53,037 bases of DNA, from the UHGV virus genome UHGV-0150124; one strand, written 5' to 3'. The DNA is from a virus. Shown here one piece after another: positions 575 through 43,296 of this stretch. Position 1 is the first letter of the stretch, and every line of letters starts with the position of its first letter. Position numbers and translations under genes: made by a program. Under the pieces are notes generated by a model that was not told the origin of the DNA, did not search any database, and worked only from the letters and a program-made list of their open reading frames with translations.

Positions 575-2354
575 TTTCGCTTAATTGAGAATCAGTTAAT
601 GCTTTGTGCCAAATACGAAAATTTCTGATATGTCCGAACAAGTGGCGCGTTCCATCGGATGTCTGACCACCAAAGCGGATGTTTTTGTCCTGTGTCACAC
701 CACCGTAGATACAAGTCGCATCACTAGCAGGTGCACCGTTCATGATCACATGGAATGTTCCATCGCCTTTAACCACCGCGCCAATAGTGGCGTTATCAGT
801 TAACTTAACACCAGCGGCAGAATTGATGTAAGCACCGTCGCTTTTGGATAGAGACATGTAATACTGATTGCTACCACGGTTAACCGCAGCGATAACTGAC
901 TGCCCATTCTTAGCGTTGGCAATATCCCAAACACGCGGCGCGGAGTTAGGCGCTCTGAACCAGTCCTTGTGAAGTTCGAGCAGGAAACTGAACGGAGGAC
1001 GCGCAAGGTTGTTTTTAGTCGTAATACTTACCAGATCGCTCGCACGGGTAGAAGGAGTTGAACCTGAGCTAATATACGATGATGCATTCGTACCAAGTTC
1101 GACTTGAGGAGTTGCCAGTTCCATGTAGTCGCCGGACACGAACGCGCTAACCGGAGCAAACTGAATTTGCGCGGTAACCAGCGTTACGGTTGATTTATAC
1201 GTCACCACTGCGCGATTCCATCCGGTGATGCTGTCCGTTGTTACGCTAACAGTGAGTTTGTCTGCATCGCCGCCTGTCTTCGTTACAGACATGTCGCTTA
1301 GTTTGATATACGCATCACACAGGAATGCCAGACTGGAAGTGTCTTCACCACCAGCAAAACGGATACGCAACCGGACGTCGTTTGACGAACGAAAACGACA
1401 AGAAGCGGTGACGTACTGTTCATCGTGCTGAGTAGTGTCGATAACGTTAGCAGTGATCACTGACGCCATGTTGCAACCACCAGTGCCGCCAACTGCACTG
1501 TCGTCGATCACGAATTTTCCGTACAGGAAACCGTAGCTGTCAGTTTCTGCTGTAGCGGTGACATTAGTTGATCGGCCCCAATTTGCAGGGACGCTACCGT
1601 TGATAAGGAAGTTTGTGCGAGCACCTTCGATTAATAATCCTTCGCGTTCGAAACGTGGCTCGTTAATATCAGCTACGGTTAAAACTCCTGATTTGTTAAT
1701 GTAAGTAGCTGTACTTGCGCGGGAGAAAGAAACAACCTTATCTGATGATATTGTTTTTTCTTCACCATCAATGGTTACTTTTTTCGTGCCTGGGCCGTAG
1801 CCAGTGATTATATCCAGAGAATCGTTAAACGGTATCCATACGTCCGGCAGCGGCTGCAAAACATACGCGTAAGGCTGTGCCGTCTGATTGGCGTATTCGT
1901 GGGCCTCGTCTCTGTATGTCTTAGCTGAATCGGCGGCGGTTGTCGCTGTTGTTGCCGCGTTGGTTGCAGTGGTAGCTGATTCTGATGCTAATTTCGAGGC
2001 TGAAATAACATCTTTGTTGTCGCTAAAAAATTCAACGGCGTCAGCTATTTCTGATTCTTTGCCCTGATAGTAACGCAGTGTTTCGGCAACATCCTGAGCA
2101 AGGCCATCCACAGAGATCGAATCTGAAAGCAGGATGCTATATTTAGTTCCAGCCGGAATTGCCGGGCTTGCCGCCGGAGTTACTGACAAACTTGTCGCGC
2201 TTTTTACCTCTGTGATTGAGAAAATCTGCACCGGATTGCTAATGGCAATAAGGGTGCAACCCACTCTAATCATAGATAATGCGGCATTGAATTCAGTGCC
2301 AGCTCCAGTAACTGTTTTTCCGCTAACGGCTATCGTGCCTGTTGTGTAAATCAT
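567..2354 (-). CDS. Tail fibre protein
   Basis: 595-aa ORF directly downstream of the J-like gene; Ser/Thr/Ala-rich shaft-like region; C-terminal region reminiscent of a lectin-like jelly-roll (by eye). Confidence 0.6.
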   Translation of the reverse strand: MIYTTGTIAVSGKTVTGAGTEFNAALSMIRVGCTLIAISNPVQIFSITEVKSATSLSVTPAASPAIPAGTKYSILLSDSISVDGLAQDVAETLRYYQGKESEIADAVEFFSDNKDVISASKLASESATTATNAATTATTAADSAKTYRDEAHEYANQTAQPYAYVLQPLPDVWIPFNDSLDIITGYGPGTKKVTIDGEEKTISSDKVVSFSRASTATYINKSGVLTVADINEPRFEREGLLIEGARTNFLINGSVPANWGRSTNVTATAETDSYGFLYGKFVIDDSAVGGTGGCNMASVITANVIDTTQHDEQYVTASCRFRSSNDVRLRIRFAGGEDTSSLAFLCDAYIKLSDMSVTKTGGDADKLTVSVTTDSITGWNRAVVTYKSTVTLVTAQIQFAPVSAFVSGDYMELATPQVELGTNASSYISSGSTPSTRASDLVSITTKNNLARPPFSFLLELHKDWFRAPNSAPRVWDIANAKNGQSVIAAVNRGSNQYYMSLSKSDGAYINSAAGVKLTDNATIGAVVKGDGTFHVIMNGAPASDATCIYGGVTQDKNIRFGGQTSDGTRHLFGHIRNFRIWHKALTDSQLSEIV

Positions 2355-2551
2355 TGCAATAACTCCATTATGTTAATTAACGGAATAATTCTACCATTTT
2401 GTAATCCGCGTTACACTTTGAGCTTATACATAATGTATTTTTTGATCTATGTCAACATACTAAATGATAGCTTCTGCGGTGATTTGCTCATCGGATGGGT
2501 GGATCATCACGAACAACAAATGACAGTAAAACAAACAGTAAGGTGAATACA

Positions 2552-2812
2552 ATGAAAAAACTAATTGTTGCTTGCATCTTATCGGCTCTGTCTTTTGGTG
2601 CTTTTGCTTCTGTAAATTCGACAGATAAGAGTGATGCTGGCACTGCTCAATATGGTGATACTAGCCTTGATAACCAACGTTCGAGTTATTTCAATACTGA
2701 CTCATGGAAAGAAAAACAACTACAAGGTAAAATTATTGACAGTGAATGTAATTTACCTATCCATTTTTCTGGTGTAAATGATGGGTGTGAAAAAAATAAA
2801 AACAATGCATAA
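2552..2812 (+). CDS. Small secreted protein, opposite-strand moron
   Basis: ATG at 2552 after AAGGTGA; N-terminal signal peptide MKKLIVACILSALSFGAFA; AT-rich; followed by terminator. Confidence 0.5.
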   Translation: MKKLIVACILSALSFGAFASVNSTDKSDAGTAQYGDTSLDNQRSSYFNTDSWKEKQLQGKIIDSECNLPIHFSGVNDGCEKNKNNA

Positions 2813-2840
2813 AAAAACGGGGCTTATGCCCCGTTTTTTA
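2811..2840. terminator. Bidirectional intrinsic terminator
   Basis: A-run, hairpin AACGGGGC-TTAT-GCCCCGTT, T-run; sits between convergent genes. Confidence 0.6.
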
Positions 2841-5800
2841 TGCTGTCGTTGATGTTATAAATGATCCGGTGCCTCTTGCTACTATCATTGTTGGAGAATA
2901 CAACGCGGTACAATATGCGTATCCTTCAGATGATGATGTTTGAGGACAATATATTTTCCCGATAATATCTGATGCTTTTAAACCAGAAAAAGCGCATTGC
3001 ACTGTTAATGTGCATCCACCATAAGGCACGTAATATGAAATTGTTTTGTTTTTATCTCCGCAACTAAACGTTACGTTATAAGTGGATCTATATTCACCAG
3101 ACATTAATGAAATAGTCGCCATAAGCATAACTGATTTCGTCAATGCATTATCCGTGCTGTCTTTATATGTGATGGTTGCGCTATAACTTCCGTTATGCCC
3201 AAGTACTCGATCTGGACCAACCCCCATGTTAGCAACGTCACCGATAAATGACTTTGCCTCTACTGTACCTTTAAACTTCCCGCTTGTGGCCTGAATCTCA
3301 CCAGTGAATTTACCAGATGTTGCGTACACCGTACCGCGTACAGTGACGTTGTTGAACTCCGCATTGCCGTTTTTATTTAGCATCCAGCCAGCCGAACCAG
3401 CTTTATAGTTGGTTGACTGAATTTGCTGCGCAATCTTCGCGGTAGTGATTGATGCGTCTCTGATCCACGCATCACGGATGTAGCAAGCACCGTTAGTAAC
3501 ATAGAACGGGGTCTGATAGGAGCCACCTGCCGCAGTCATAAGCACGAAACGGTCAACGAGGAAAATACACTGCGATTGAACGTTAGTCCCGCTACCAGTA
3601 AGGCCGAGCGACATTCCTGTAGCGTATTTCATACCGTTTTTATCAGTGGCAATCTTAATTGAATATGACGCATCAACGTTACCTTTGAAGTCAGTCAGTG
3701 CTTTTGATGTCGTTTCTATCGCCGTTGTGTTTCCGTTAATAGTTACTTTCAACTGGTCGATTCTGGTTGACAATGCCTCGTCTGCCGTTGCCATAGCCTG
3801 TGACCATTCCGTGATGCTTGAGTTTACATCGTCGAAAGATGCCGAGATCTGGCCAAATTTTTCCGCGCTTGATGTTTCATGCGTAGAAAGTGCAGTTGAC
3901 ACTTCGGATACTTTCGAATTAATCGTACTGGTAAGCGATGAGTTAAGGCTGCTGATTGCGTCAGTGCGTGCATTCTTCTCATCTGCGATCGCTTTATCCA
4001 TCCTGGTTACGTTGCTTGTCACCTTGCTATCGAGCGTGGAAATTGACGCATTAACCCCGCTAATAGCTTCTGCGCGTGCGCTTGATTCATCGGCGATAGC
4101 CTGATCCAGGCGCTTAACACTGGCGTCAGTTTTGCTTTCAAGGGTACTGATATTGGCGTTAACGTTGCTAATGGCTTCAGCGCGTGCGCTTGATTCATCG
4201 GCTATCGCTGTATCTACCCTTGCTATTTCCGCTTTTGTTTTTGTTTGCCCTTTCCTGTATTTCGCCTCAATAATAGTGCTCATCTTGCTTTGTGCCATTG
4301 AGTTATTAATAAGAGCAAGTGAGGCGTTTTGCAGACTTGCTTTCGCCTGATCTATCTCGTCGCTGTTTTTATCAACCTCACTTTTAACGCCGTCAAGCGA
4401 CGCGCTGATACCTGATATCGCCTGAGCACGTGCGCTTGATTCATCGGCGATAGCCTGATCCAGGCGCTTAACACTGGCATTTGTGTTATTTTCAAGCGTT
4501 GTTAAATCAGCTTTAACCACTGTTATTGCGTCGCTTCTTGCCTGCGTTTCATCTGATATTGCTTTATCAAGGCGGGAAACGCTGGCGTCAGTTTTCTTGT
4601 CAAGCGTTGAGATACTTGCGTTCACGTCGCTGATAGCCTGAGTACGCGCACTTGTTTCGTCTGCAATTGCCCGGTCAAGACGGTTTACGCTGGCGTCAGT
4701 TTTCTTGTCAAGATTGCTTATTGAAGCGTTCACGCCGTTAATGGCTTCAGCGCGTGCGCTGGCCTCGTCAGCCACTGCGCGTTCCACACTGGAGATCTGA
4801 CCTTTAAGGTTAGAATCCATCGTGTTCATTTCTGCCGTGATGGTTTCCAGTGATTCCGCTGTCGCTTTTTTCTCTTCAGCGATAACGTTGTCAATACGGT
4901 CAATTTCAGCCTTCGTCTCTGTCCTACCTTTCTTGTACTGAGCGGTAAGAGTTACGCGAGTGTTAGTCTGTGCAAGCGAGTTATTGATAAGCGCCAATGA
5001 CGCGTTTTGCAGGCTTGCTTTTGCTTGCGCCAGTTCGCTGCCAACTTTTTCGCTGGATACTTCAAGGGAGTCTATTCTTGACTCATGCTGCCCAATATCA
5101 TCGGCGTTTTCCTTAACTTTTTTATAAAGATCTTCCGTTTCTTTTTTAAGTGTATCCGTGTCAGCTTTTATCGATCCTGTTTCTGTGATTAGGTTGTCAG
5201 TTTCAGTCCTTAAATCGTCAGTTATTTCGGTCAGATTGTCAGTTGCAGTTTTAAGGTCATTCGTAGCGCTTTCGATAAGATCAGTGCGGTCGCCTAGATC
5301 TTTAATGTCATCAACCATTTCTTTAAACTGTTTTGAATTCATCACGTCTTTGGTGACGTAATCGGTGATTTCATCAAAGTTTTCTGTTGGCTTACCTGAT
5401 GCTTCAACGAAATCTGACACGCCGAAAGCGTTACGTGTGCGCACATAAACGTAATATGTGTGACCTGTATTCATGCCGCCAAACGTCCACTGATGACCAC
5501 GACCTGTATATTGTGCTTTAGTGGTTACTGATGCCGGGTCGGTGATCTGTGTTTCACCTGAGTAATAAAACTCATAACTGGTATCAGTGGTGAGCGTTGT
5601 TCTGCTGATCGGGTAAACGGTAGCCTGGAATACACCAGGAACCCAATTAACGCCGACGGGGGCCGCTGGTGCACCAATAACCAGATCCACAATACTTTCC
5701 GCGCCCTTCATGCCAGTATCATTACGCCCGCGAATACCTAATGAATAGATTCCTGAGTCAATGCCATAAAAATCATAACTGTAATTCGTAGTTTCGTAGC

Positions 5801-7787
5801 TTTTGACTACAGCGCCAGTGGTGTTATATACGCGGATTTCAAAGGTCAGGCGACGGGTTGTCGTCTGTGTTTCCCACGTTGCGCGACACTGGACCGTTTC
5901 GGATCCAATGTTTATCACCTTCAGATTTTCAATGTTCGGCACGCGGAAGTGATTAAGCGTGTCGTTATTGATCTCGAAGATTGCACCATTATCAACTACA
6001 GCCTGTTTGTGTGGGTCGTGCTGTGCTGCCTCGATGGTGTATACGCTGTTATTTTCTGTTTCTGCTACGCTGGTGATTCGACATAAAACGGGTTTTGCTG
6101 CGTTGGTTGATACAGCAAAAACAGTGCCGTTACGAATCCATGCCGGGGCGTGTGCAAGGGTGATATTGTTCCCGTTAACTCCGGTGATCTGGTGTTTTTT
6201 AAATTTACCATCGCTATCGAGTAAGCTGATGGTGTCACCAGGGGCGATGTATTCAGAATCAACCTTATCGACAGTTATTACTCTTCCATTGTTGGCCACG
6301 ATACGACCGCCTAAACGAGCGCCTGCGCGGTTATTGTCGAGTATCTCGATAATATCACCTGGCGTAAAGTGAATCGCGTCACGGGCCATTTTAAACGTGA
6401 ATTTTGATGGTTCGCGTTTTGCTGTTTCTATCAGCCATTTTCCAGCGCGGTGCGCTTGCCCGCGTGAAGTGCAACCGAACGCCTCCAACGTGGTTTCGTT
6501 ATAACCATCACGGGCGATTAGTTTATCATCTGCGACATATTCTTTTGATTGCTCCCAGCCGTTTTCAGGGTCAGTCCAGGATACGATCACGGCGTTGTAG
6601 CATTCTGCGCGTGCGATACTTGAACGAGTAAATGCGCCATCAACGACGTTTGCATTTGTGATGGTGGCGATTGGATCTTGTGGCGCATCAATCATCACGG
6701 TAAGGCGTTGTCCATCCCATAACGCGATACCACGGAACATACCTGCGATGTTATCCAGTAGGTCGCGGGCGCTCATTTGCTCCGTAATGTAAGCGTTAAG
6801 CGTCATGCGAGGCTCAAGGCCACCATAGCCATCATCAACCAACTGATCGCAGTATTGAGAAAGCACGTACAAAGCGCCATCATCAACATCAATGTAACCA
6901 GCATGTCGAGCAAGCCCAAAGCGCTCGTTTTTAACCAGATACCGGAAAAGCCATGCAGGGTTATTGGTATACGCCTTTTTAAATCCACCAAGCCATAAAC
7001 CTGAATATGTGCGCGTTTCAGGATTGTAGTTGTCAGGCACATCAACAATCAGGCCACGAAGGTGATAGGTGCGGGTAGGCGTATCAGTATATTGATCGTG
7101 GTCAATTACTGCGCCAGCTACAGCGGTATGAGGATAAGACAGGTTATCGTCGATTATCTCGCTGTAACTGCTCCACCGCGTATCGTTCCGCAATAGATCG
7201 CTGTTGCTGTCTGCTGTCACGCGACGAACGCGAATATCAAACGGTTTTTCATCCGGTGCTTTAATGATGTGGGCTTCCAGATACTCACCGCTTTGTTTGC
7301 CGGGGCCAATTTGTATATCCTTAATCAGCGACCACGTAGAAGATGATGACGGTTTAACATCAACCATCAACATGACGGATGTATTATATTGATTGCCCTT
7401 TTCATCTGACTGAACGAGAGCATCAACGCCAAGATTCAACCTGACGCGGGTAACGTTTGGATCTGAAACAGTCCTGATTATTGGTGTGTCGTGAGTTACC
7501 TTTGCGTTGACAATAACGGTTGACTCAATGGCGTTAAAACCATTAATCGGCGATTGGTCAGTCGTGCCGTTGCGCCAGGCTATACTAATCCCCGGAATTG
7601 ATGTATTCCCGTTTGCGTCAGTAACAGGAGTGTCATTAAGCATCACGTCATTCAATGGCGCTTTCTGGTTTGCCGGACCGTATATCGGCCCTTCGCTGAG
7701 AATATCTAAAACACGATAAAACTGTTTGTGATACAGGTTATCGTTCAATAATGTTGGTGTTTTGGCTTTGCCGCCGCCGCTACTCAT
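2838..7787 (-). CDS. J: Host specificity / central tail fibre protein (lambda J-like) with a long repetitive coiled-coil insertion
   Basis: 1649 aa; N-terminal ~700 aa align by eye with lambda gpJ (e.g. WSSYSEIID...RTYHLRGLIVDVPDNYNPETRTYSGLW vs WSSYTEIID...RNYHLRGRILQVPSNYNPQTRQYSGIW); central ~36-aa repeats. Confidence 0.85.
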   Translation of the reverse strand: MSSGGGKAKTPTLLNDNLYHKQFYRVLDILSEGPIYGPANQKAPLNDVMLNDTPVTDANGNTSIPGISIAWRNGTTDQSPINGFNAIESTVIVNAKVTHDTPIIRTVSDPNVTRVRLNLGVDALVQSDEKGNQYNTSVMLMVDVKPSSSSTWSLIKDIQIGPGKQSGEYLEAHIIKAPDEKPFDIRVRRVTADSNSDLLRNDTRWSSYSEIIDDNLSYPHTAVAGAVIDHDQYTDTPTRTYHLRGLIVDVPDNYNPETRTYSGLWLGGFKKAYTNNPAWLFRYLVKNERFGLARHAGYIDVDDGALYVLSQYCDQLVDDGYGGLEPRMTLNAYITEQMSARDLLDNIAGMFRGIALWDGQRLTVMIDAPQDPIATITNANVVDGAFTRSSIARAECYNAVIVSWTDPENGWEQSKEYVADDKLIARDGYNETTLEAFGCTSRGQAHRAGKWLIETAKREPSKFTFKMARDAIHFTPGDIIEILDNNRAGARLGGRIVANNGRVITVDKVDSEYIAPGDTISLLDSDGKFKKHQITGVNGNNITLAHAPAWIRNGTVFAVSTNAAKPVLCRITSVAETENNSVYTIEAAQHDPHKQAVVDNGAIFEINNDTLNHFRVPNIENLKVINIGSETVQCRATWETQTTTRRLTFEIRVYNTTGAVVKSYETTNYSYDFYGIDSGIYSLGIRGRNDTGMKGAESIVDLVIGAPAAPVGVNWVPGVFQATVYPISRTTLTTDTSYEFYYSGETQITDPASVTTKAQYTGRGHQWTFGGMNTGHTYYVYVRTRNAFGVSDFVEASGKPTENFDEITDYVTKDVMNSKQFKEMVDDIKDLGDRTDLIESATNDLKTATDNLTEITDDLRTETDNLITETGSIKADTDTLKKETEDLYKKVKENADDIGQHESRIDSLEVSSEKVGSELAQAKASLQNASLALINNSLAQTNTRVTLTAQYKKGRTETKAEIDRIDNVIAEEKKATAESLETITAEMNTMDSNLKGQISSVERAVADEASARAEAINGVNASISNLDKKTDASVNRLDRAIADETSARTQAISDVNASISTLDKKTDASVSRLDKAISDETQARSDAITVVKADLTTLENNTNASVKRLDQAIADESSARAQAISGISASLDGVKSEVDKNSDEIDQAKASLQNASLALINNSMAQSKMSTIIEAKYRKGQTKTKAEIARVDTAIADESSARAEAISNVNANISTLESKTDASVKRLDQAIADESSARAEAISGVNASISTLDSKVTSNVTRMDKAIADEKNARTDAISSLNSSLTSTINSKVSEVSTALSTHETSSAEKFGQISASFDDVNSSITEWSQAMATADEALSTRIDQLKVTINGNTTAIETTSKALTDFKGNVDASYSIKIATDKNGMKYATGMSLGLTGSGTNVQSQCIFLVDRFVLMTAAGGSYQTPFYVTNGACYIRDAWIRDASITTAKIAQQIQSTNYKAGSAGWMLNKNGNAEFNNVTVRGTVYATSGKFTGEIQATSGKFKGTVEAKSFIGDVANMGVGPDRVLGHNGSYSATITYKDSTDNALTKSVMLMATISLMSGEYRSTYNVTFSCGDKNKTISYYVPYGGCTLTVQCAFSGLKASDIIGKIYCPQTSSSEGYAYCTALYSPTMIVARGTGSFITSTTA
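3900..5100 (-). repeat. Intragenic near-tandem ~108-bp repeats inside the J-like gene
   Basis: Near-identical DNA blocks, e.g. GCGCGTGCGCTTGATTCATCGGCGATAGCCTGATCCAGGCGCTTAACACTGGC at ~4071 and ~4435; encode repeated RLDxAIADE(S/T)SARAxAIS units. Confidence 0.6.
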
Positions 7788-8332: not shown

Positions 8333-9006
8333 TTATCAGATCTCCATATTGAATGCGTTTGTCGAACATAAGCAGGCCGCATTTGCTCGCGGCGGCTTAA
8401 TAATCCGGCATGGTCATGATGCAAAACCGTGTTATCACCCAGGTAAATCATTGCGTGACACGGGTCAGCGCCTTTGAATGGCTGGCGAATGATCACATCA
8501 CCAGGCTGTATGCTTTGCGCATCAACCTGATAAAACCCGTTCAATGGCAGGTTTTTTAAATACAGGTTTTCACCGCGAAGCCACCAGCCATCAAGGCGCT
8601 CGAAGTCAGGCAGATCTACACCGCAAAGGTGATATGCGTCGCGGAAAAGCGCGTAACAGTCTGTCGTTCCGTGTACGAATTTACGGCCTAGCAGGTGCGC
8701 AACCGGACGGAATTTCCTGATCTTGCCGCCGGAATATAAAAACCAGGGTAGCCCGGAAATAACCTGTTGCTGTCGATCCCGCGCTGACAATACAGGAATA
8801 TCACCAACGTGGGAGTGGAAAACGGCGGTTATAACGCCCAATTCGTCCGCTTTGATGTAATCGTCCGGCGAAATCTTGAAGCTGTTGTAAGGTGTTTCAG
8901 ACACGTTAGCGCACGGGTAAAAATACTCGTTATCTATTACAAGTCCGCAAACTTCCTCAAACGGATGCGCGGCGGCATAACGCGACATTTTGTCTTCCAT
9001 CCCCAT
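8275..9006 (-). CDS. Tail tip assembly protein K-like
   Basis: JAB/MPN-like AVFHSHVGD motif and Cys-containing peptidase-like region; position between L and I; track ORF extends to 9081, internal start at 9006 preferred. Confidence 0.65.
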   Translation of the reverse strand: MGMEDKMSRYAAAHPFEEVCGLVIDNEYFYPCANVSETPYNSFKISPDDYIKADELGVITAVFHSHVGDIPVLSARDRQQQVISGLPWFLYSGGKIRKFRPVAHLLGRKFVHGTTDCYALFRDAYHLCGVDLPDFERLDGWWLRGENLYLKNLPLNGFYQVDAQSIQPGDVIIRQPFKGADPCHAMIYLGDNTVLHHDHAGLLSRREQMRPAYVRQTHSIWRSDKCSNLDLRAIFEDITAKCV

Positions 9007-9008
9007 GA

Positions 9009-9713
9009 TTAACCTACCTTGCTGGAACCAGGAAAACAGGAGATCGGCAGTGCTGCCGGACGCGGAAAACGCAAACGGCAACCGCTAAGGCGGTGGCTGC
9101 ATTTGTCTAACGTTGGGTCACTTGTTGGTGTATCTTTATCAGTTGCGACCGGGCCGCCAGAATACATGCACCCGTCGCCTCTGTATTGCCACTGACAAAC
9201 GTCAGCAAGGATGGTGCGCCCTGGGATAACGGCTTTATCTGCATCAATTGGCGTTGACAATTCATATTGCACCTGATCCGCTGTTTCTTCGCTCATTGCT
9301 TCAACGACGTAAAAAGATACAGCCTCAATAGATGGATCTGCGTCTGGATTGCCGTTAGGGAAGTTAACGGCGTCCAGGTATTTAACCTCCACCTGGCGGC
9401 GCGTAACCTTCATTCCTCGCAGGTCGTTGAAATCGTTATTCATCCCTGTGATTAGCCCGCCGATATTGGCTACAACCATTTGAGGCCGCGAATAAACGCC
9501 CTCGTTTTTCATTTCGAAGCCCGTCGTCTCGATCGGGTAGCTGTTGTAAGCTACTCCCTTCCAGATAACCTGGCCGTAATAGCCGTTCGCGCCGGAATGG
9601 AAGCGGATAACCTCGCCTCCCAGGGGAGTAAGGTCCAGTTCAAATAAGTCAATGACCGCGCCAACTCCGGCATCGACGGAATCAATAATCATCTCTCTCG
9701 GAATATTGCGCAT
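9009..9713 (-). CDS. Minor tail protein L-like
   Basis: 234 aa; alignment by eye with lambda gpL (LDAVNF...GN..ADP, C-terminal Cys cluster). Confidence 0.8.
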   Translation of the reverse strand: MRNIPREMIIDSVDAGVGAVIDLFELDLTPLGGEVIRFHSGANGYYGQVIWKGVAYNSYPIETTGFEMKNEGVYSRPQMVVANIGGLITGMNNDFNDLRGMKVTRRQVEVKYLDAVNFPNGNPDADPSIEAVSFYVVEAMSEETADQVQYELSTPIDADKAVIPGRTILADVCQWQYRGDGCMYSGGPVATDKDTPTSDPTLDKCSHRLSGCRLRFPRPAALPISCFPGSSKVG

Positions 9714-9731
9714 TTTCTCACCTTGTCATTT

Positions 9732-9747
9732 TGTGATATGCGTCACA
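9732..9747. promoter_or_regulatory. CRP-consensus palindrome TGTGATATGCGTCACA
   Basis: Perfect TGTGA-N6-TCACA half-sites, ~62 bp upstream of a candidate promoter start. Confidence 0.4.
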
Positions 9748-9767
9748 CTAAATCACACCAAAATGGA

Positions 9768-9796
9768 TTGATCATGGTTTTTACAATATGTATATT
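9768..9796 (+). promoter_or_regulatory. Candidate sigma70 promoter for the plus-strand moron cassette
   Basis: -35 TTGATC (9768..9773), 17-bp spacer, -10 TATATT (9791..9796). Confidence 0.35.
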
Positions 9797-9824
9797 TTAC
9801 TCAAACGAAGGGGAAGTTAACAAA

Positions 9825-10031
9825 ATGGCGCGGAGGTGCGTTATGACTGAAAAGCCATGGAAGTTGACGGTATTCATGACAGACGGTAGGGAAAAGGTTA
9901 TCGCCCTGTATGACGACGAGGGGGAAGCATTGGTTGACGCGCTTTTACTTGCTGAGGATGACCGCCTTTTGGGATACCAGATCGAACCTGTCAAATATGA
10001 GGCTAACAAAAATGAAAAAATACAGTCTTGA
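9825..10031 (+). CDS. Hypothetical protein, moron cassette gene 1
   Basis: ATG at 9825 after GAAGGGGAAG; opposite strand to surrounding tail genes. Confidence 0.4.
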   Translation: MARRCVMTEKPWKLTVFMTDGREKVIALYDDEGEALVDALLLAEDDRLLGYQIEPVKYEANKNEKIQS

Positions 10032-10362
10032 TGTGTGGTTAAGTGGTAGCAAGGAGTGTTTCGGATTATTTGATAGCGAAGAAGTAGCCCTGGAAGAAGG
10101 CAGGATTCTTGAATGTAGTTTAGGCCATCCAGTGAAATATGCTGCTAATCCGGTACAGATAGTTGATGAGGTGGAAGATATGAACCCGAAAGATATTAAT
10201 GTTAACTTCAATGTTAATTTTGCAGACTCTATGGATCAGTCTTGCCCTGGTGAAATACACGCAAAAGGTTTCCCGGCTGACGATCCAGAAGCAAAACGCG
10301 AATACGAAAAAGCTGCGAAAGACTTCTGCATCGATAACCTAAGCTGTTTTAATGGCAAATAA
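10012..10362 (+). CDS. Hypothetical acidic protein, moron cassette gene 2
   Basis: 116-aa ORF, ATG at 10012. Confidence 0.4.
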   Translation: MKKYSLDVWLSGSKECFGLFDSEEVALEEGRILECSLGHPVKYAANPVQIVDEVEDMNPKDINVNFNVNFADSMDQSCPGEIHAKGFPADDPEAKREYEKAAKDFCIDNLSCFNGK

Positions 10363-10377
10363 AGAGTGAGCCAATAT

Positions 10378-10611
10378 ATGAAGATGATAGGTATTATCAA
10401 ACTCGTTGTTACATCTAACAAAAAGAAGGATTTTAATATAAAAGATAAATACCCATTATTCAAAACATCTTCTGGTACTTATTTCACTGTTGGCAACTGT
10501 TTAAACTTTGTTCCGCTGACAGTGCTTGATGTTTCTGGAGGCATGGTGAAATGGTATGGAACTGTTTACGGCGATGATTTTATGCCTGATATGCTATTTT
10601 TTGATGCGTAG
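10378..10611 (+). CDS. Hypothetical protein, moron cassette gene 3
   Basis: ATG at 10378 after AAAGAGTGAG. Confidence 0.4.
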   Translation: MKMIGIIKLVVTSNKKKDFNIKDKYPLFKTSSGTYFTVGNCLNFVPLTVLDVSGGMVKWYGTVYGDDFMPDMLFFDA

Positions 10612-10621
10612 GAGTAAAATC

Positions 10622-10870
10622 ATGGGGCGGCGCAATCACGGTGATTATGTGTACACGTTGAAACAGGCCGCCCGCCTCGTCGGTTATCATGAGCACGAAT
10701 TTATTGATTTGCTGATTGAGCGCGGGATTCTGTACCAGGTATGTTTAACGCTGTACCCGAAAGCGAAATACCTACAGGAAAAGTTATTTATCATCATGAC
10801 GGATGAAAACCAGGTAAATCATTCATTCGTCACCGATAAGGGATTGACATATTTGAAGGGAGTGTTATGA
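10622..10870 (+). CDS. Putative HTH DNA-binding protein, moron cassette gene 4
   Basis: ATG at 10622 after AGGAG; segment YTLKQAARLVGYHEHEFIDLLIERGIL looks like an excisionase/MerR-type HTH. Confidence 0.4.
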   Translation: MGRRNHGDYVYTLKQAARLVGYHEHEFIDLLIERGILYQVCLTLYPKAKYLQEKLFIIMTDENQVNHSFVTDKGLTYLKGVL

Positions 10871-10947
10871 GGTGTGTGAACATTACATTCTCGAAGTGAT
10901 TATTATTGCGGTAGCTGTAATGCTGGTATTATCACCAATATTATAAA

Positions 10948-10972
10948 CCCCGCTCCGGCGGGGTGTTTTTTT
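10948..10972 (+). terminator. Intrinsic terminator ending the plus-strand cassette
   Basis: Hairpin CCCCGC-TCCG-GCGGGG followed by TGTTTTTTTT. Confidence 0.6.
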
Positions 10973-11184
10973 TAATCGTAGGATAGAAATGCCACCTCTT
11001 TGCCATCATATGTCGTACAGCCGACATACCCATCACCCATATCATGAAGATACCAGGTCTCACCGTCATCAGCCTTTACAGTGAGATCATTAATTTCATA
11101 ATCGGCAAATAATGTAAAAGCTCCAGTGCGCTCCACTACACAAAAATAAGGCATATAACCACCTCTAATTAATAACTTGCTCAA
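10972..11184 (-). CDS. Hypothetical small protein
   Basis: 70-aa ORF between the M-like gene and the moron cassette. Confidence 0.3.
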   Translation of the reverse strand: MSKLLIRGGYMPYFCVVERTGAFTLFADYEINDLTVKADDGETWYLHDMGDGYVGCTTYDGKEVAFLSYD

Positions 11185-11518
11185 ACGTTGCGTTTAGCGT
11201 GTACAAAGGCCCGTCTTTAGTCATGCTCCATTGCCGACAGACAAAAAGCCTTTGCACGTTATCCATTGACGGCGACCAGTAAAAAGCCTCGACCGCGCCG
11301 CGCGCCCTCAAGAATGCTTCCGCCTGGATTGCTACGTTTCCACCATCACCACATCCGGCGCTACTGCCTTTAAACACCAGGGTGTAGCTATCAAGCAATG
11401 GATTGATACCTTTTACCTGTCTTTGCTCATAACCATCGCCCAACTTAACAACAGATACGTCTGGCTTCCTGGTCACGCTGTAGCTTCTTTGCGGCGTCCA
11501 TCTGAACACTTCCGGCAT
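11165..11518 (-). CDS. Minor tail protein M-like
   Basis: 117 aa; matches lambda gpM by eye (FRW...GDGY.QR...FEQV.N). Confidence 0.8.
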   Translation of the reverse strand: MPEVFRWTPQRSYSVTRKPDVSVVKLGDGYEQRQVKGINPLLDSYTLVFKGSSAGCGDGGNVAIQAEAFLRARGAVEAFYWSPSMDNVQRLFVCRQWSMTKDGPLYTLNATFEQVIN

Positions 11519-11685
11519 AAAACCCCCACAAGTTACATTTTGTATATATCTTTACGCGCTTCTACGCGAAAAATAAGATCATTGTCACAATGATTATAGC
11601 TAGTTTACAAAATGGCTTCACATAGCACGCAACAAGATGTATATAGAAAGCAAGAAGAAAGTAGTACCAACGAAGGAGGCCCAAA

Positions 11686-11841
11686 ATGAAACGCTATGTA
11701 GTAGTAATGCTAAATAACGCATTCGAACAAGTGGAAATAGCAATCGTTAAGGGTTTCGACGACGCATTCAAATACGGTCAATTCATGATGAATGCGAAAG
11801 AAGATGAATACCGGGACTTCTTCCTGAAGGCACTTAACTAA
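11686..11841 (+). CDS. Small ORF (51 aa), first gene of opposite-strand mini-cassette A
   Basis: ATG at 11686 after AAGGAGG; preceded by motif GTTTACAAAATGGCTTCA. Confidence 0.3.
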   Translation: MKRYVVVMLNNAFEQVEIAIVKGFDDAFKYGQFMMNAKEDEYRDFFLKALN

Positions 11842-11858
11842 GGATGATGGGGTGAGTT

Positions 11859-12113
11859 ATGAAACTGGTAGCGATTGACAGAAATCTGAAAGCACAGAAA
11901 AACGCACAGGACCGGATCATCAAGAAAGGTAAGGAATTACTTAAAGCCTTTCTGAGAAAAGAAGTTTACCCCAAAAAGTTACGCGACGGTTACGGATACA
12001 AAATGGATATCAATCTTGATTGGAGGCTGTTTAGCGAAGATTTGAAGGTTTGGTTAATTGTTGAGCACCATGCCTATAACAAGTTATGTGGCGTGAAAGG
12101 CACTCATAAGTGA
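11859..12113 (+). CDS. Hypothetical basic protein (84 aa), mini-cassette A
   Basis: ATG at 11859 after GGGGTGAG; followed by terminator. Confidence 0.4.
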   Translation: MKLVAIDRNLKAQKNAQDRIIKKGKELLKAFLRKEVYPKKLRDGYGYKMDINLDWRLFSEDLKVWLIVEHHAYNKLCGVKGTHK

Positions 12114-12174
12114 GTCGAGATATTCGAAAGGGGATATATCGCGCGGAATGGTCGTTTATAAATACGAAAAATAA

Positions 12175-12205
12175 CCCCGGCATTGCACCGGGGTTTAGTT
12201 TATTT
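12175..12205 (+). terminator. Intrinsic terminator after mini-cassette A
   Basis: Hairpin CCCCGG-CATTGCA-CCGGGG followed by TTTAGTTTATTT. Confidence 0.5.
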
Positions 12206-14545
12206 GCGGCGAGGTTGCAACATTCCGCCTGGTCTTTGAGATTCCCTTGTTATCATTTTCATGGCTACACGTTCCATTGTTAATTCAAGTCTGCGGCTGT
12301 CTTCGTCGCTGAATCCGTTCGTGGTCTGAATGCTGATACTGACAGGCATACTAATACCGCCACCGCCGCCAATATCACGGCCCGGAATAACTCTGCCGTT
12401 CTCGCCAGGGATCATATATTGATTGCCGTTAGATGTCTGGAATAGCTCCGGCCTGTTGTGTTCCCCTACGCGGTACATATTACCACCAATGACGCTACCA
12501 CCATTAAAGCGACCGCCGCCGAAAATTGACGTAGCCAGCGACATGATCGCAGTGAGCGCCGCCGAACCAGCCGCCGCCCAGCTACCGCCAGTTGACGCCG
12601 CAGTTGCCGCCGCTGCTGGGGCCGCCGCCGCAGCAATGCTTCCCTGAGCTGCTACCGCGCTTGCTGTTGTACTTGTTTGCGTGGCCTTGCTTTGTGTCTC
12701 CATCATGATCTGATCTGCTATCCAGTTTGCAGCTATGTCTGAGAGTCTGTTACCGATATTGCCGAGTATATTGCTTCCTAAGTTAGCAAAAACATCACTC
12801 AATGATTGAGTGCCGTTTAACAGGCCAACAAGCGCATTACTCATTCCGCCTTTAAGGCCATTAACACAATCACCGATAAGGCCGTTTGTGTCGCTTTGCG
12901 CCTGCCATTGTTCCCATTTCAGATCGCGGATCTGTTGCTCATAGGCTAACAATTCCTGTTTCTGTTGCGCTTCAGTAGCGCCCAGGTCTATAAGCATTTG
13001 CTTACGGATGGCCCATTCATTTTGCGCCTGCTGGATGGGGTCAACTTCGCCTTTTAGCTGATCCATCGGGCTTACTATTTGTGACCATTTATCACGCAAT
13101 TCATCTACCGGAATTTGTGCTAATTCTTCTTTCAGTTCCTTACCGATCCCTTTTTGCGCGGCGCGGTACTCAAGGAGTGTGATTTTACCCTGGGCGAATG
13201 CAGCATCAATGGCCTTTCCGTTCTCTAATGCTTTGCGCATAGCTGCGGCGTCTTTATTGTACTGGTCAGAAACGCTTATGCCCTTGTCACCAAGCGTATC
13301 CTCTTTGCTTTTCTTGCTGCCAGTTTTCTTACCCTTTTTAGGTTTATCAACTGGTTTATCGAATCCGGTAATGGCTCCGTCTTTTGGTGCTGTTAACGCC
13401 TCTTTCGCTTCTTCGCCTTTTTTCCTGACCGCATCAAGATCACTCTTAAGCGTCATAACCTGGCCTACGACCGGGCCGAACATTTTTGTCGGATTGCTGT
13501 TTAGTTCTTCCTTGCGCTCGTCTACAATTTCCTTCATCCACTTATATGCATCCATCAGCGCCTTGATTGGCGTCACCATTGCAATGATCTTCTCTGCTAC
13601 CTCGCCAGCCTTCACAGCCACATCATCAAACATGTCGATGAATTCGCCACCAGCCGTTTTGAGTGTATCGAAGCAGGTTTTAGCGAATTTAGCGCCCTCG
13701 CCAAGCCCTTTAACGCCCTTCGTGATTAAGTCGATAGCTGAAACAACGCCATCTGATACGCCGAAAAGATCATCAAGCTGCTCAACAAGGCCCATGATTT
13801 CGACTTTAAGCTCATTCAGGGCCGTGCCGGATGTGCGCGGCAACTGCGCAAACTTCTCGTTTGTTTCCTGCGTAGCCGCCTGGATTGCGTTAACCATCCT
13901 TTCTGCCGTGATCTTACCGTCCAGCATTTCGGCGCGGAACTGGCCCATTGATAATCCCATATGGCGGGCCATTGTTTGTACGATGGTCGGGGTGTTTTCA
14001 AGTAGGCTGTTAAATTCTTCAGCACGCAGCACGCCGCCGTCTATAGACTGGCGGAACTGGCGCATAGAGTTTGACATTTGCTCTGCTGACGCACCGCCTA
14101 ACGCCCCCATTTTCTGAATAGTGCCGACAAGGTTAAGTAATTGACCTTCGGTAGCTGACGTGTTCTTCAGTGAGATAGCCAGGCCTTGCCATAGTTCGCC
14201 AGTATCCTTCAGGCTCTGACCCGTCTCCCTGGATATTGCTTTCAGGCCGTCAAAAACCCGTCCGGCGGACTCTGCATCGCCCGTAAGCATTTTGATTTTT
14301 ACGCGAAGCATTTTTGCTTGCTCCGCCATATCCATAAATTGGCGCACAGCCTCGGCAGCAATTAGCAAATGGATAACCCTGGTCAGTGCCTTGATGGATG
14401 TTTTCAGGGTGTTTACCTGGCGGTCAGCCTGTTTTGCGCCGCGCTCTATACGATCAAAGGCCTGGTCTGCCTGTCGTTGTGCAACGAGAAGTTGACCAGT
14501 TTTCGCATCAACTTCGTAATAAATTGTACCTACACTGGTAGCCAT
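12200..14545 (-). CDS. Tail tape measure protein
   Basis: 781 aa, long helical/coiled-coil body, Gly/Ala-rich C-terminal region; sits between tail chaperone and tail tip genes. Confidence 0.85.
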   Translation of the reverse strand: MATSVGTIYYEVDAKTGQLLVAQRQADQAFDRIERGAKQADRQVNTLKTSIKALTRVIHLLIAAEAVRQFMDMAEQAKMLRVKIKMLTGDAESAGRVFDGLKAISRETGQSLKDTGELWQGLAISLKNTSATEGQLLNLVGTIQKMGALGGASAEQMSNSMRQFRQSIDGGVLRAEEFNSLLENTPTIVQTMARHMGLSMGQFRAEMLDGKITAERMVNAIQAATQETNEKFAQLPRTSGTALNELKVEIMGLVEQLDDLFGVSDGVVSAIDLITKGVKGLGEGAKFAKTCFDTLKTAGGEFIDMFDDVAVKAGEVAEKIIAMVTPIKALMDAYKWMKEIVDERKEELNSNPTKMFGPVVGQVMTLKSDLDAVRKKGEEAKEALTAPKDGAITGFDKPVDKPKKGKKTGSKKSKEDTLGDKGISVSDQYNKDAAAMRKALENGKAIDAAFAQGKITLLEYRAAQKGIGKELKEELAQIPVDELRDKWSQIVSPMDQLKGEVDPIQQAQNEWAIRKQMLIDLGATEAQQKQELLAYEQQIRDLKWEQWQAQSDTNGLIGDCVNGLKGGMSNALVGLLNGTQSLSDVFANLGSNILGNIGNRLSDIAANWIADQIMMETQSKATQTSTTASAVAAQGSIAAAAAPAAAATAASTGGSWAAAGSAALTAIMSLATSIFGGGRFNGGSVIGGNMYRVGEHNRPELFQTSNGNQYMIPGENGRVIPGRDIGGGGGISMPVSISIQTTNGFSDEDSRRLELTMERVAMKMITRESQRPGGMLQPRRK

Positions 14546-14702
14546 GATTTAACCTCATGCAGAATGTGATGTATGTCTCTATTTTATACAAAATGGCTTC
14601 ATTTCAACGAATACATTTTGTATAAAGAAGCTAAAGGGAAGGGATAGAGCAAATGGATTTAAAAGGCCGGATTAACCGGAGGAAGCAAAAGGGGACAAGA
14701 AA

Positions 14703-14786
14703 ATGAAAAACGCAAACTACCGCCCCAACGAACATGAACGCTATGCGGATTTCATCGAAGAAATGTTAAAAGCACTTAAAAAATAA
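14703..14786 (+). CDS. Small ORF (27 aa), first gene of opposite-strand mini-cassette C
   Basis: ATG at 14703 after GGGGACAAG; preceded by motif TATACAAAATGGCTTCA shared with cassette A. Confidence 0.25.
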   Translation: MKNANYRPNEHERYADFIEEMLKALKK

Positions 14787-14854
14787 ACAATATGCGTGTA
14801 TAAATAAGTTAAAGGAAGAATTTAGCAAATCATAATAAGCGGTAGGAGTTGATT

Positions 14855-15268
14855 ATGAAACGGTTAGCAAAAATGGCACTTACTGTGATTGCCGCACTCG
14901 CATTTAACGCGAACGCTAACGAGGCCATAAGCATTAACTGTGAAGAAGTGGCAAACCATGTAGCAGCATATCACGACATGATCAAAAAAGAACCAGCCGC
15001 GCCAGCAATTCTTTTTAAGGCAATTGATAAAAAATTTGAAGGTAAACCAGTTTATGCTCGCTGGTTTAATTATGGCCTTGTAAACGAGGCTGCTGTAGGC
15101 GTAGTCTTTGAAAATAATAGCGAAATAAAAAACAGGATAGCAAACGAGTGCAAGGCAAATAAAGTTGCTTTCGCGGAAAGAATTTTTAATGAAGGCGGCG
15201 CGGGCGCAAAAAATTACGCAATTGTAGATTTGGGTAACGGGTTTATTGATATTATTAGAATCAAATAA
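14855..15268 (+). CDS. Secreted protein with signal peptide (moron)
   Basis: ATG at 14855 after GGTAGGAG; signal peptide MKRLAKMALTVIAALAFNANA; followed by terminator. Confidence 0.5.
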   Translation: MKRLAKMALTVIAALAFNANANEAISINCEEVANHVAAYHDMIKKEPAAPAILFKAIDKKFEGKPVYARWFNYGLVNEAAVGVVFENNSEIKNRIANECKANKVAFAERIFNEGGAGAKNYAIVDLGNGFIDIIRIK

Positions 15269-15275
15269 GATGAAC

Positions 15276-15300
15276 GCCCGGATCTACCGGGCTTTTTCTT
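15276..15300 (+). terminator. Intrinsic terminator after mini-cassette C
   Basis: Hairpin GCCCGG-ATCTA-CCGGGC followed by TTTTTCTT. Confidence 0.55.
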
Positions 15301-15970
15301 GCTTGCTATTTTTCATTCTTTCCAGTGCCTTTTTAGCGGCCTCCATTTGCTCGTCATAAGCACGTTTATTTATGTGAATGTTTGGCTTGCTTCTCTCGTT
15401 TCTTTCGTCTGGCGGCGTTTTAGCGCGTACAACGGCCCTATATCCGGTCATTGTCATATTCCATGCTTCTGATTCTGATAACCCCAGGTGAGCTACGGCA
15501 GAATAAACGAATTCCAGCACGTTAAAAGTCGGCTTATATTCCCCTTCCCGGCTCTCTCCGGCGTCTTCTTCTGGCCCGTCACCGATTAAACCGTGGTACA
15601 TGCAATGTTGTGCCAGCGTGATAACGTCACTGGTCGGCATCAGTCCGGGTTTTAGTCGTAACTTGCCGGAAGAAGTTAACCTACATTCACCCAATAACGG
15701 GGCTATTTCGTCGTCTGAGCAACATTTCAGGATGCGCATTGACGTTTGTACTATCTCACCATAACACCGCGCCATAATGCGATTGCGGAGGTCTGGATCT
15801 GTAGGCAATCGTGATGGGTATTTGCTGCCGTGGATAAGTGCGAAATATTCGACAAGCTCACTATCGTTGCCGATTTTAGCCATCGCAGCAAAGCAAGGAT
15901 TAAACTCATAGCGCTTACCGTTCACCACAGCAGCAAATTGTCCTGTACGAACATGGATCATAGTATTCAC
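15284..15970 (-). CDS. Putative tail assembly chaperone
   Basis: 228-aa ORF immediately upstream (in operon order) of the tape measure gene; assignment by position only. Confidence 0.35.
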   Translation of the reverse strand: MNTMIHVRTGQFAAVVNGKRYEFNPCFAAMAKIGNDSELVEYFALIHGSKYPSRLPTDPDLRNRIMARCYGEIVQTSMRILKCCSDDEIAPLLGECRLTSSGKLRLKPGLMPTSDVITLAQHCMYHGLIGDGPEEDAGESREGEYKPTFNVLEFVYSAVAHLGLSESEAWNMTMTGYRAVVRAKTPPDERNERSKPNIHINKRAYDEQMEAAKKALERMKNSKQEKAR

Positions 15971-16016
15971 CTTAAAAGAAAAGGGGCCAAATGGCCCCGA
16001 TTGTTAATATTGGCTG

Positions 16017-34420: not shown

Positions 34421-34732
34421 AAAAACCACCCCGATTATTTTTGATTCTCTGTTTCGTTCAGCCTTTCGGCGTGTCCGGCCCTTAGCCAATGTTCTAAGCA
34501 TTCGTTGCACTCGTTACAGCCTCCTTTCTTCGTGCTGCATACATTGCACATTGCACGCATAACGCTTTCTCGTTCATAGTCGTCATGCCATTGGTAATCA
34601 TCAAAAGACATAATGCTCTCTCCTTTTCAGGTGATTTCTACGCATTTCAGCGCTGCCGGATTTTTAAAGAGCATTTTGTTTGCTTGAAGTATACAAAATG
34701 GATATGCCATAACAAGGTGAAAAGCGCCATTA

Positions 34733-34748
34733 TGTGATACGTATCACA
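34733..34748. promoter_or_regulatory. CRP-consensus palindrome TGTGATACGTATCACA
   Basis: Perfect TGTGA-N6-TCACA within a fully symmetric 14-bp palindrome, in the gap between methylase and ninG. Confidence 0.4.
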
Positions 34749-34770
34749 CAGTGACGCCATTTTGTAAACT

Positions 34771-41938: not shown

Positions 41939-42310
41939 CTTAACATCTTTCAACTAATCCCGCAATCATCGCCGTTCCCGGCGTGACCTTGCTCACTCCA
42001 AGCAAGCTGACTCGTCGCCTTGCGTGCGGTTTCGTGGGGGATGTAACGCTTTAAACACCCCATGCGCCTTGTTATCAGTGCCGCTTTCGGTCCCCCATCG
42101 GGGAGTTACTCCACGGTTGACAAGGTGTTAAGCCTGATTTTTAAAGTGCCAGGAAGTTGCTTTTGTTACCTGCGCCCTTCCTTTGACTCGCAATATACGC
42201 CCCGTAAAACATCGAGTCAATCCATTTTGTATACTTTTTTAAAATATTTTATATGCCATTGATATTTAAATAATAAATAACGTTTTCTGTTTACGTTTTG
42301 GTGTTTTCCA

Positions 42311-42991: not shown

Positions 42992-43296
42992 GTCGCTACC
43001 CTATAACCTCAAAAAGTTTGATGCAAGTCACAAAACGTGTATTTTAAGCCTTGATCTTAAAATTCCATTTTGTAAACTTGCAGACAAGGTAAGGCCATAC
43101 TTGCAAAGACGCAAGGAAAAAGATAACGGAAGGCACAAAAAGGCACTTACCTTATGCTCTTTAAAAATCCGGTGTCGCTGCGAAGCGAAAAACAAATATC
43201 ACGCAACGGCGGGATCTGTTGAGCGGTCAGTCACTGCTATCTAATGCTAATGGGATGCCCGCCCGCGCGTTCACTCTAACCATAGGAGAAAATGCG
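42992..43296. promoter_or_regulatory. Immunity-region intergenic control region (candidate operators and rightward promoter)
   Basis: 305-bp gap with repeated CTTGCA / TGCAAG half-sites and palindrome CTTGCAAAGACGCAAG; no Cro-like ORF found. Confidence 0.4.
43153..43190 (+). promoter_or_regulatory. Candidate nutR (boxA-like TGCTCTTTAA plus boxB-like CGCU-GCGA-AGCG)
   Basis: Resembles the nutL candidate (CGCUG.GAAG core). Confidence 0.35.

Follow-up and report, generated by a model that had tools for sequence, protein, structure and literature searches.

A moron-type candidate operon with a ParE_like gene, oriented against the tail operon of mEpimmI Escherichia coli prophages, is probably not a classical toxin-antitoxin pair

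Phage morons, reportedly treated by Juhala et al. in 2000, and two-gene toxin-antitoxin (TA) operons are the described systems that come closest to cassette A, the locus reported here, which lies at 11602-12205 of the virus genome UHGV-0150124 (53,037 nucleotides; "the window" in what follows is this whole stretch). Morons such as gene 15 in the tail operon of HK97, or bor and lom of lambda, are independent transcription units with a promoter and a terminator of their own, a GC content differing from that of their neighbours and a placement between tail genes (reviewed by Cumby, Davidson and Maxwell, 2012; PMC3594210). Among the TA systems, paaR2-paaA2-parE2 is borne by the cryptic prophage CP-933P of E. 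coli O157:H7, and PaaA2-type antitoxins are a known exception to the rule that an antitoxin carries a DNA-binding domain (PMC8630535).

The window corresponds to an mEpimmI (mEp021-like) prophage of E. coli. The mEpimmI group consists of Nus-dependent, non-lambdoid temperate siphophages of E. coli, which are common among the coliphages of the human gut (PMC11893012). The chromosome of E. coli M1/5 contains cassette A with 100% identity, and the phages mEp021, mEp554, mEp010, mEp013, mEp044, mEp515 and MagusPhagus match it at 81-94%. A literature search returned no description of its genes, and the paper on the mEpimmI phages (PMC11893012) mentions neither morons, nor ParE, nor the promoters discussed below. 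The reading that we favour, and that we hold to be about evenly balanced between right and wrong, is that cassette A is a moron-type accessory operon fixed in the mEpimmI family, in which the second gene, ORF2, is the effector and the first, ORF1, a dispensable partner that depends on ORF2.

Structure and conservation of cassette A

The unit is on the plus strand inside the minus-strand tail operon, as a reading of the sequence alone had proposed, and every element listed by that reading (a leader motif, a 51-aa open reading frame (ORF), a basic 84-aa ORF and an intrinsic terminator) was found where it had been placed. Both neighbours, the tape measure protein gene (12200-14545; PF20155, 3e-50) and the M-like minor tail protein gene (11165-11518; PF05939, 1.4e-27), are on the minus strand. 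Over 11450-12200 the GC content falls to 0.40, compared with 0.46-0.60 for the flanking tail genes, and across the cassette the strand skews reverse. ORF1 (51 aa, phrog_29810) extends from 11686 to 11841 behind a Shine-Dalgarno sequence GGAGG (11675-11679), located 6 nt before the ATG at 11686, and encodes a mildly acidic protein (pI 5.14). After a gap of 17 nt, in the same direction and with the same single promoter and single terminator, ORF2 (84 aa, phrog_1525) occupies 11859-12113, and its product is indeed basic (pI 9.87).

The intrinsic terminator (12173-12205) is bidirectional and is common to cassette A on the plus strand and to the tape measure gene on the minus strand. It consists of the hairpin AACCCCGG-CATTGCA-CCGGGGTT at 12173-12195, with a stem of 8-10 pairs of which 6 are G-C, followed by TAGTTTATTT to 12205; T-runs are found on both strands and both strands score as terminators. 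The hairpin, which is also present in the RNA fold, lies five bases past the stop codon of the tape measure gene. In the relatives, including those with extra cargo between ORF2 and the terminator, the conservation of the block 12167-12260 is 87-94%.

The distribution of the cassette was followed in 5426 complete E. coli genomes, with 49 loci for the analysis of selection and 44 viral loci for the pairing of ORF1 with ORF2. Conservation in related prophages, on which the sequence-only reading had made its proposal depend, is borne out by the homology search: a homolog of M is present in 35 of the 5426 genomes and the same 35 carry cassette A, as do all seven of the seven related phage records. 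ORF1 is intact in 46 of the 49 loci and ORF2 in 47, with a mean pN/pS of 0.11 at a pS of 0.49 for the former and of 0.14 at a pS of 0.61 for the latter. Because they are under purifying selection and conserved in the relatives, ORF1 and ORF2 are real genes. In every relative they come first and second in the slot that separates M from the tape measure gene; up to four more genes follow ahead of the terminator, and only the cargo downstream of ORF2 varies. In mEp021 (locus L003, 4794-6128; mEp021_66, mEp021_65) two extra genes follow the ParE_like gene, one for a treble-clef zinc finger/CapR-like protein (PF14311, PF21817) and one with a T5orf172 domain; domains of these types are often seen in conflict systems.

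The claim that the cassette has its own promoter is supported by the alignment of the 49 homologous leaders, 41 of which are distinct. The -35 hexamer TTCACA (11617-11622) reads TTCAC in 40 of the 41 distinct leaders, the sole exception being L021 with TTCATG, while the -10 hexamer TATATA (11640-11645), with a TG directly 5' of it, belongs to a TGTATA found in 41 of 41. The two are 17 nt apart throughout, and the letters of the spacer vary, being wholly different in L023 and L026. Since the hexamers are invariant or nearly so and their spacing constant while the spacer sequence varies, TTCACA-17-TATATA reads as the comparative signature of a sigma-70 promoter, with a probable transcription start near 11652. 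A consensus scan missed this promoter because it demands a T as the last base of the -10 hexamer, which here is an A. Directly abutting the -35 box is the upstream element AGTTTACAAAATGGC (11602-11616, about -50 to -36 from the probable start), the core of the leader motif of the sequence-only reading, which is largely conserved in the 41 distinct leaders with few point variants. The 18-mer proposed as that motif, GTTTACAAAATGGCTTCA, is present at 11603-11620; when up to 3 mismatches are allowed, the window contains 5 matches, whereas the shuffles lead one to expect 0.08.

An upstream ORF (MASHS...) beginning at an ATG inside the motif, which accounts for the 68- and 76-aa gene calls in databases, was discarded. 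Its frame is lost among the relatives through indels (0, 1 or 2 nt) in the 5' untranslated region, and the 68- and 76-aa calls hinge on these indels and are not conserved; moreover, if transcription starts near 11652, the ATG would lie upstream of the transcript. On the other side of the promoter, towards the start of the M gene at 11518, the divergent intergenic region has a conserved part at 11534-11568. Here an inverted copy of the motif, TACATTTTGTA, is found at 11534-11544, degenerate (ACATATTGCATAC) in about half of the 41 leaders, together with a direct repeat TACGCG-N4-TACGCG at 11553-11568, which has a 10-bp phasing, can also be drawn as a small hairpin and is conserved in nearly all of the 41 leaders.

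In the mechanism that we propose, the putative sigma-70 promoter TTCACA-17-TATATA, preceded by the A-rich AGTTTACAAAATGGC, would fire along the plus strand against the tail operon from a start near 11652, and ORF1 and ORF2 would be on one transcript with separate ribosome-binding sites. This transcript would end at the bidirectional terminator at which the tape measure gene ends as well, so that the cassette would be insulated from the late operon, and late transcription would have to read through this shared terminator to reach gene M. ORF2 would be an effector with the fold of the RelE/ParE superfamily, acting on nucleic acid or on a topoisomerase, and the Arg, Ser, Asp, His and Asn residues that do not vary in its family would form a candidate active or binding site. 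ORF1 would be a helical partner peculiar to this lineage, whose most likely role is to bind ORF2 or to tune it.

ORF2, ORF1 and the case for a toxin-antitoxin pair

ORF2 matches the Pfam family PF24732 (ParE_like) at 9e-12, with 45.3 bits against a cut-off of 24.4, and its RefSeq entry (WP_000779577.1) is already named "ParE family toxin-like protein". Because of this membership, the suggestion of a TA-like module that came with the sequence-only reading was a reasonable one, and part of it stands: the two genes are small, adjacent and co-directional, they form an operon, and the second belongs to a recognised toxin family. In its full form, a classical type II TA system, ORF2 would be a ParE-type toxin (a gyrase poison or an mRNA interferase) and ORF1 a labile antitoxin of the PaaA2 kind (small, helical and lacking a DNA-binding domain), and the pair, expressed from the prophage, would stabilise it or abort superinfection. 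The arrangement itself, a small acidic gene 17 nt upstream of a small basic one behind their own promoter, speaks for such a system, as does the score of ORF2 above the Pfam threshold.

How the two genes occur also bears on this question. ORF1 was never seen without ORF2, neither in the 44 viral loci nor in any annotated relative, which counts in favour of such a pair, and in strain PAR a frameshifted ORF2 stands beside an intact ORF1, which is the usual direction of TA decay. ORF2, however, does occur alone. In UMNK88, a cultured enterotoxigenic E. coli (L102; NC_017641.1, 1659386-1659640), whose locus is the same as the IMG/VR locus L026, and in the metagenomic phage L023, ORF1 is cleanly deleted and the ParE_like gene stands directly behind the cassette promoter; the junction looks like the product of recombination between the two ribosome-binding-site regions. 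The UMNK88/L026 and L023 loci are 5% diverged from each other, share the same deletion and both have an intact promoter, and their ORF2 genes differ by 10 nucleotides with only 2 amino acid changes. A second copy of ORF1 did not turn up in UMNK88, there being one matching place per genome. A third case is MFDS1019527, with a frameshifted ORF1 beside an intact ORF2. This asymmetry, ORF2 alone but never ORF1 alone, is the reverse of what an addiction module predicts, in which the antitoxin is indispensable as long as the toxin is intact; here ORF2 is kept intact, under selection and behind an intact promoter in the absence of ORF1. Since ORF1 is dispensable, the pair would be at most a loose TA-like couple and not an addiction module.

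The other marks of a classical pair point in the same direction. Neither Pfam nor NCBIfam gives ORF1 a DNA-binding domain, and the search for an operator near the promoter yielded as its only palindrome 11578-11594, which is not conserved in the leaders of the relatives. The precedent of PaaA2-ParE2 in CP-933P, in which the antitoxin has no DNA-binding domain (PMC8630535), takes some weight from the former point. Against a TA pair is also the free recombination between the alleles: ORF1 alleles pair with several ORF2 alleles, and an identical ORF1 is found with ORF2 proteins that are only 60% identical to each other. Neither ORF2 nor ORF1 matches any defence family of PADLOC-DB 2.0 at E <= 1. 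Taken together, cassette A is probably not a classical TA pair, and we regard the type II reading as doubtful.

ORF1 has no match in Pfam, NCBIfam or PADLOC, and an exhaustive HMMER search with its alignment found only 5 representative clusters among 1.84 billion proteins, all of the same lineage; by these searches it is a lineage-restricted orphan. It is predicted to be all-helical, its AlphaFold2 model being a single helix (pLDDT 81).

The wider family of ORF2 bears on the same question. The residues invariant throughout the PF24732 alignment are L28, K40, W55, R56, S59, D61, W65, H70 and N74 (numbered as in ORF2), and the polar core W55, R56, S59, D61, W65, H70 and N74 is compatible with an active or binding site; we take this core to resemble the Arg/His/Tyr sites of RelE and YoeB. 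A profile scan of the genome contigs with the ORF2 alignment returned no relative. Distant PF24732 genes of 73 aa are present in the Sortsnevirus phages Sortsne (Escherichia), IME279 (Klebsiella) and Kc237 (Kosakonia) (L049-L051), phages that we take to be virulent; the start of the gene there overlaps the stop of an unannotated gene of 115-125 aa, and the pair lies between helicase and lysis genes. On chromosomes of E. coli, Providencia rettgeri and Morganella morganii (L052-L057), PF24732 genes of 94-97 aa overlap the end of a DUF2857 gene, in the order DnaB, a 549-aa protein, DUF2857, ParE_like, a 425-435-aa protein, AcaB and topoisomerase, which looks like the backbone of an integrative and conjugative element (ICE). 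Among the neighbours examined at the Sortsnevirus and ICE-like loci, no recognisable antitoxin partner was found, a further point against the type II reading. The literature search found no paper citing PF24732 and no family member tested for toxicity.

All these genes share with ORF2 the core WR(L/V)xSxD...W...H...N and a closely apposed upstream gene. The upstream partners (the 115-125-aa product, or a 196-aa DUF2857 protein) are unrelated to ORF1, and, unlike ORF2, the genes are parts of longer operons and have no separate cassette with promoter and terminator; at its N-terminus ORF2 has about 14 additional residues.

A promoter-upstream element common to the cassettes and to the early control region

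The element upstream of the cassette A promoter is not confined to it. The 9-mer TACAAAATG, which lies within it, is the most over-represented one of the window: it occurs 14 times where 0.88 would be expected, and no shuffle has more than 5. The copies, TACAAAATG or CATTTTGTA, start at 2395, 11536, 11606, 11997, 14587, 14614, 34692, 34758, 38110, 41544, 42223, 43066, 47332 and 50282; all but one or two are intergenic, and both orientations occur. One subclass, TACAAAATGG, abuts -35 boxes, and another, TACAAAATGTA, lies a little 5' of ribosome-binding sites, for example those of gene M and of the gene starting at 41406. In cassette A and at four other places the register is the same, namely CAAAATGG, one base, the -35 hexamer, 17 nt and the -10 hexamer. 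These are the promoters of cassette A (11617-11645, plus strand; TTCACA, TATATA), cassette B (9768-9796, plus; TTGATC, TATATT) and cassette C (14598-14626, plus; TTCATT, TATAAA), a pR-like promoter upstream of an N-like gene (42192-42220, minus; TTGACT, TATATT) and a weaker site (34727-34755, minus; GTCACT, TAATGG) with the element at 34756-34770. Since cassette B and the early pR-like promoter have the element too, it is the signature of a promoter class rather than a leader specific to one cassette.

Cassettes B and C show the same dip in GC as cassette A. Cassette C (14581-15292) lies between the tape measure gene and a DUF6246 gene, and resembles cassette A in its layout of promoter, small conserved ORF, variable cargo and terminator. 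The paralogy that had been proposed between the two was examined by alignment and holds in part: they have in common the exact 15-mer TACAAAATGGCTTCA (6 of 5000 shuffles score as well), the promoter geometry and the layout, but homology of ORF1 with the small ORF of cassette C did not survive a shuffle test: the likeness at the C-terminus of ORF1 is not significant, being equalled in about 2000-5000 of 20000 shuffles, and in 2229 of them for the 27-aa form of that ORF. At the DNA level the paralogy thus appears to be confined to the 15-nt module upstream of the promoter. The conserved small ORF of cassette C (14703-14786; 27-29 aa) stands ahead of cargo that is exchanged between relatives. Here that cargo encodes a secreted protein of 137 aa; E. 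coli M1/5 and STEC308 have a VasI/TagO-like lipoprotein in its place (PF11319, 1.7e-16), and mEp554 has membrane proteins. Cassette C also has a near-perfect 14-bp inverted repeat, TTTATACAAAATGG...(A/C)CATTTTGTATAAA, perfect in the relatives L001 and L002, which forms two face-to-face promoter-like sites. Cassette B (9759-10965, plus strand) is a third antisense unit, between the L and M tail genes, with the promoter CAAAATGG-A-TTGATC-17-TATATT and four ORFs, the last of which (10622-10870) has an antirepressor KilAC domain (PF03374, 3e-6); it ends at a terminator at 10947-10964, and its content varies among relatives.

The sharing of the element with an early promoter raises a different explanation, namely that the antisense tail cassettes are early lytic genes, switched together with the pR-like promoter, for instance by the prophage repressor or a factor acting at AAGTWTACAAAATGG, and that ORF1 and ORF2 have their role in infection, taking over the host or countering its defences. 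The layout common to cassettes A, B and C and to the promoter upstream of the arginine-rich N-like gene (gp17), further along the window, is the main argument for it. In addition, the motif is the only 14-mer (with up to 2 mismatches) common to the pR-side and pL-side control regions, and the 16-mer joining it to the pR -35 box has exact matches in numerous viral contigs as long as mEpimmI genomes (~50-57 kb); many of these same contigs carry the cassette. The KilAC antirepressor domain of cassette B would be awkward to express in a lysogen, and the relatives of ORF2 in Sortsnevirus phages agree with a role in infection. On the other hand, the motif is asymmetric, unlike the operators to which dimeric repressors of the CI type bind: its identity as a palindromic CI-type operator found no support, since it has no dyad symmetry and no palindrome is common to the pR and pL regions. 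Its A-tract (about -45 to -37) fits the proximal subsite of an UP element, a reading for which UP elements are established background and which would make these promoters strong and constitutive, although the motif is also a possible site for a regulator. Finally, an antisense layout insulated by a terminator is the classic one for genes expressed from a repressed prophage (PMC3594210). We consider control as early lytic genes unlikely.

Two other identities of the motif were discarded. As a -10 element it would need a -35 box, which is not consistently present, and a TG suitably spaced from it, which is missing; an informal comparison by eye with the consensus sites of IHF, Fis, OmpR, PhoP and TyrR gave no convincing match. 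A scan of 9000-16000 against Rfam returned only sub-threshold noise. At 34659-34770, inverted copies of the motif (34688-34702, plus; 34756-34770, minus) flank the perfect palindrome TGTGATACGTATCACA (34733-34748). A boxA-like sequence, TGCTCTTTAAAAATCCGG, adjoins these copies and recurs at 43155-43172 (plus strand) near the gene of the CI-like repressor (42344-42991; HTH_3 and Peptidase_S24); the two boxA-like regions are probably the nutR2 and nutL described for mEp021.

A bolder reading joins the two threads. The "ParE_like" family PF24732 would be a family of solitary, antitoxin-free effectors, near-core in mEpimmI phages, Sortsnevirus phages and ICE-like backbones, and the antisense tail cassettes of mEpimmI would be co-regulated early genes and not morons of lysogenic conversion, which may join the early circuit through the 15-nt element that also marks the pR-like promoter. 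This joint proposal is tentative, and we would not expect it to prove right.

The view of cassette A as non-functional, its ORFs and its matches to consensus sites having arisen by chance in a spacer between genes, can appeal to the absence of its promoter from the output of the consensus scan and to the lack of relatives of ORF1 outside its lineage, but it is highly improbable and effectively refuted by the conservation data, given a pN/pS near 0.1 for both ORFs at a pS of 0.5-0.6, a unit present in 35 of 35 family members, hexamers invariant or nearly so round a variable spacer and an ORF2 above the Pfam threshold.

Elsewhere in the window, the J-like tail fibre gene (2838-7787, minus strand; 1649 aa) contains several 12-mers that recur at 4078, 4186 and 4432 (within 4075-4450), with a first spacing of 108 bp, which suggests repeated units within this gene of the central tail fibre.

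Comparison with known systems

Several points weigh against the reading of cassette A as a moron-type operon with ORF2 as its effector. One concerns the assumed fold: for the RelE/ParE fold we looked for N-terminal helices followed by a 3-4-stranded antiparallel sheet, and the AlphaFold2 model of ORF2 has a helix at 2-36, three strands and a helix at 70-76, at a pLDDT of only 57.8; the input alignment was shallow, with 21 sequences sharing at least 69% identity. With this poor model Foldseek gave no match at E <= 0.001, only noise; sequence and profile searches of the PDB with ORF2, broader alignments included, returned no relevant relative; and hhalign of the ORF2-family alignment against E. 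coli RelE and RK2 ParE was negative, in what was a weak test. Orphan toxins can persist when weakly expressed, and this lends the TA reading some residual probability. What the data show is the anatomy of the unit, its comparative promoter signature, its conservation, the purifying selection on both genes, the place of ORF2 in Pfam, the one-sided co-occurrence and the survival of ORF2 where ORF1 is missing. Inferred are transcription from the promoter, its start site and expression from the prophage, together with a contact between ORF1 and ORF2, the fold and biochemical target of ORF2, when the genes are expressed and what the phage gains from them (prophage fitness or inter-element conflict). 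Lastly, classical morons (PMC3594210) are sporadic additions, whereas cassette A is in every family member examined.

The significance of the locus should be seen in proportion. Its genes are already deposited and partly annotated, and an add-on of this kind is ordinary in phages. The two most notable points are the promoter-class element and the antitoxin-independent ParE_like gene. The former offers a testable handle on the control of accessory genes in mEpimmI phages. As for the latter, if ORF2 is an active effector with a RelE/ParE fold that is kept without an antitoxin, the automatic annotation "ParE family toxin-like" would be misleading for PF24732, and the family would point to a function common to phages and integrative elements. 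Failing that, it is a further accessory operon of the usual kind among tail genes.

Compared with classical parDE and relBE operons, cassette A has the same two-gene arrangement of small proteins with the (putative) toxin in second place, and the order helix-three strands-helix in the poor model of ORF2 would be compatible with the RelE/ParE fold of their toxins. Unlike them, it has no ribbon-helix-helix, Phd or helix-turn-helix domain in ORF1 and no conserved operator, and ORF1 is dispensable. The prophage-borne paaR2-paaA2-parE2 of CP-933P (PMC8630535) is closer, with a small antitoxin, like ORF1 free of a DNA-binding domain, encoded upstream of a small basic protein of the ParE family. Cassette A differs from it in having no regulator gene, in its location in the tail operon and not in the immunity region, in the absence of detected sequence similarity, in the membership of ORF2 in PF24732, a model separate from that of classical ParE, and in the persistence of ORF2 without ORF1. 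With the morons HK97 gene 15 and lambda bor and lom (PMC3594210), cassette A shares the status of an independent transcription unit placed between tail genes: it has its own promoter, as judged by comparative evidence, its own terminator and a divergent base composition. It departs from them in that it is not extra DNA of sporadic presence but is fixed, being found in all M-bearing genomes and all related phage records, and in that its proteins are unrelated to gp15, Bor and Lom.

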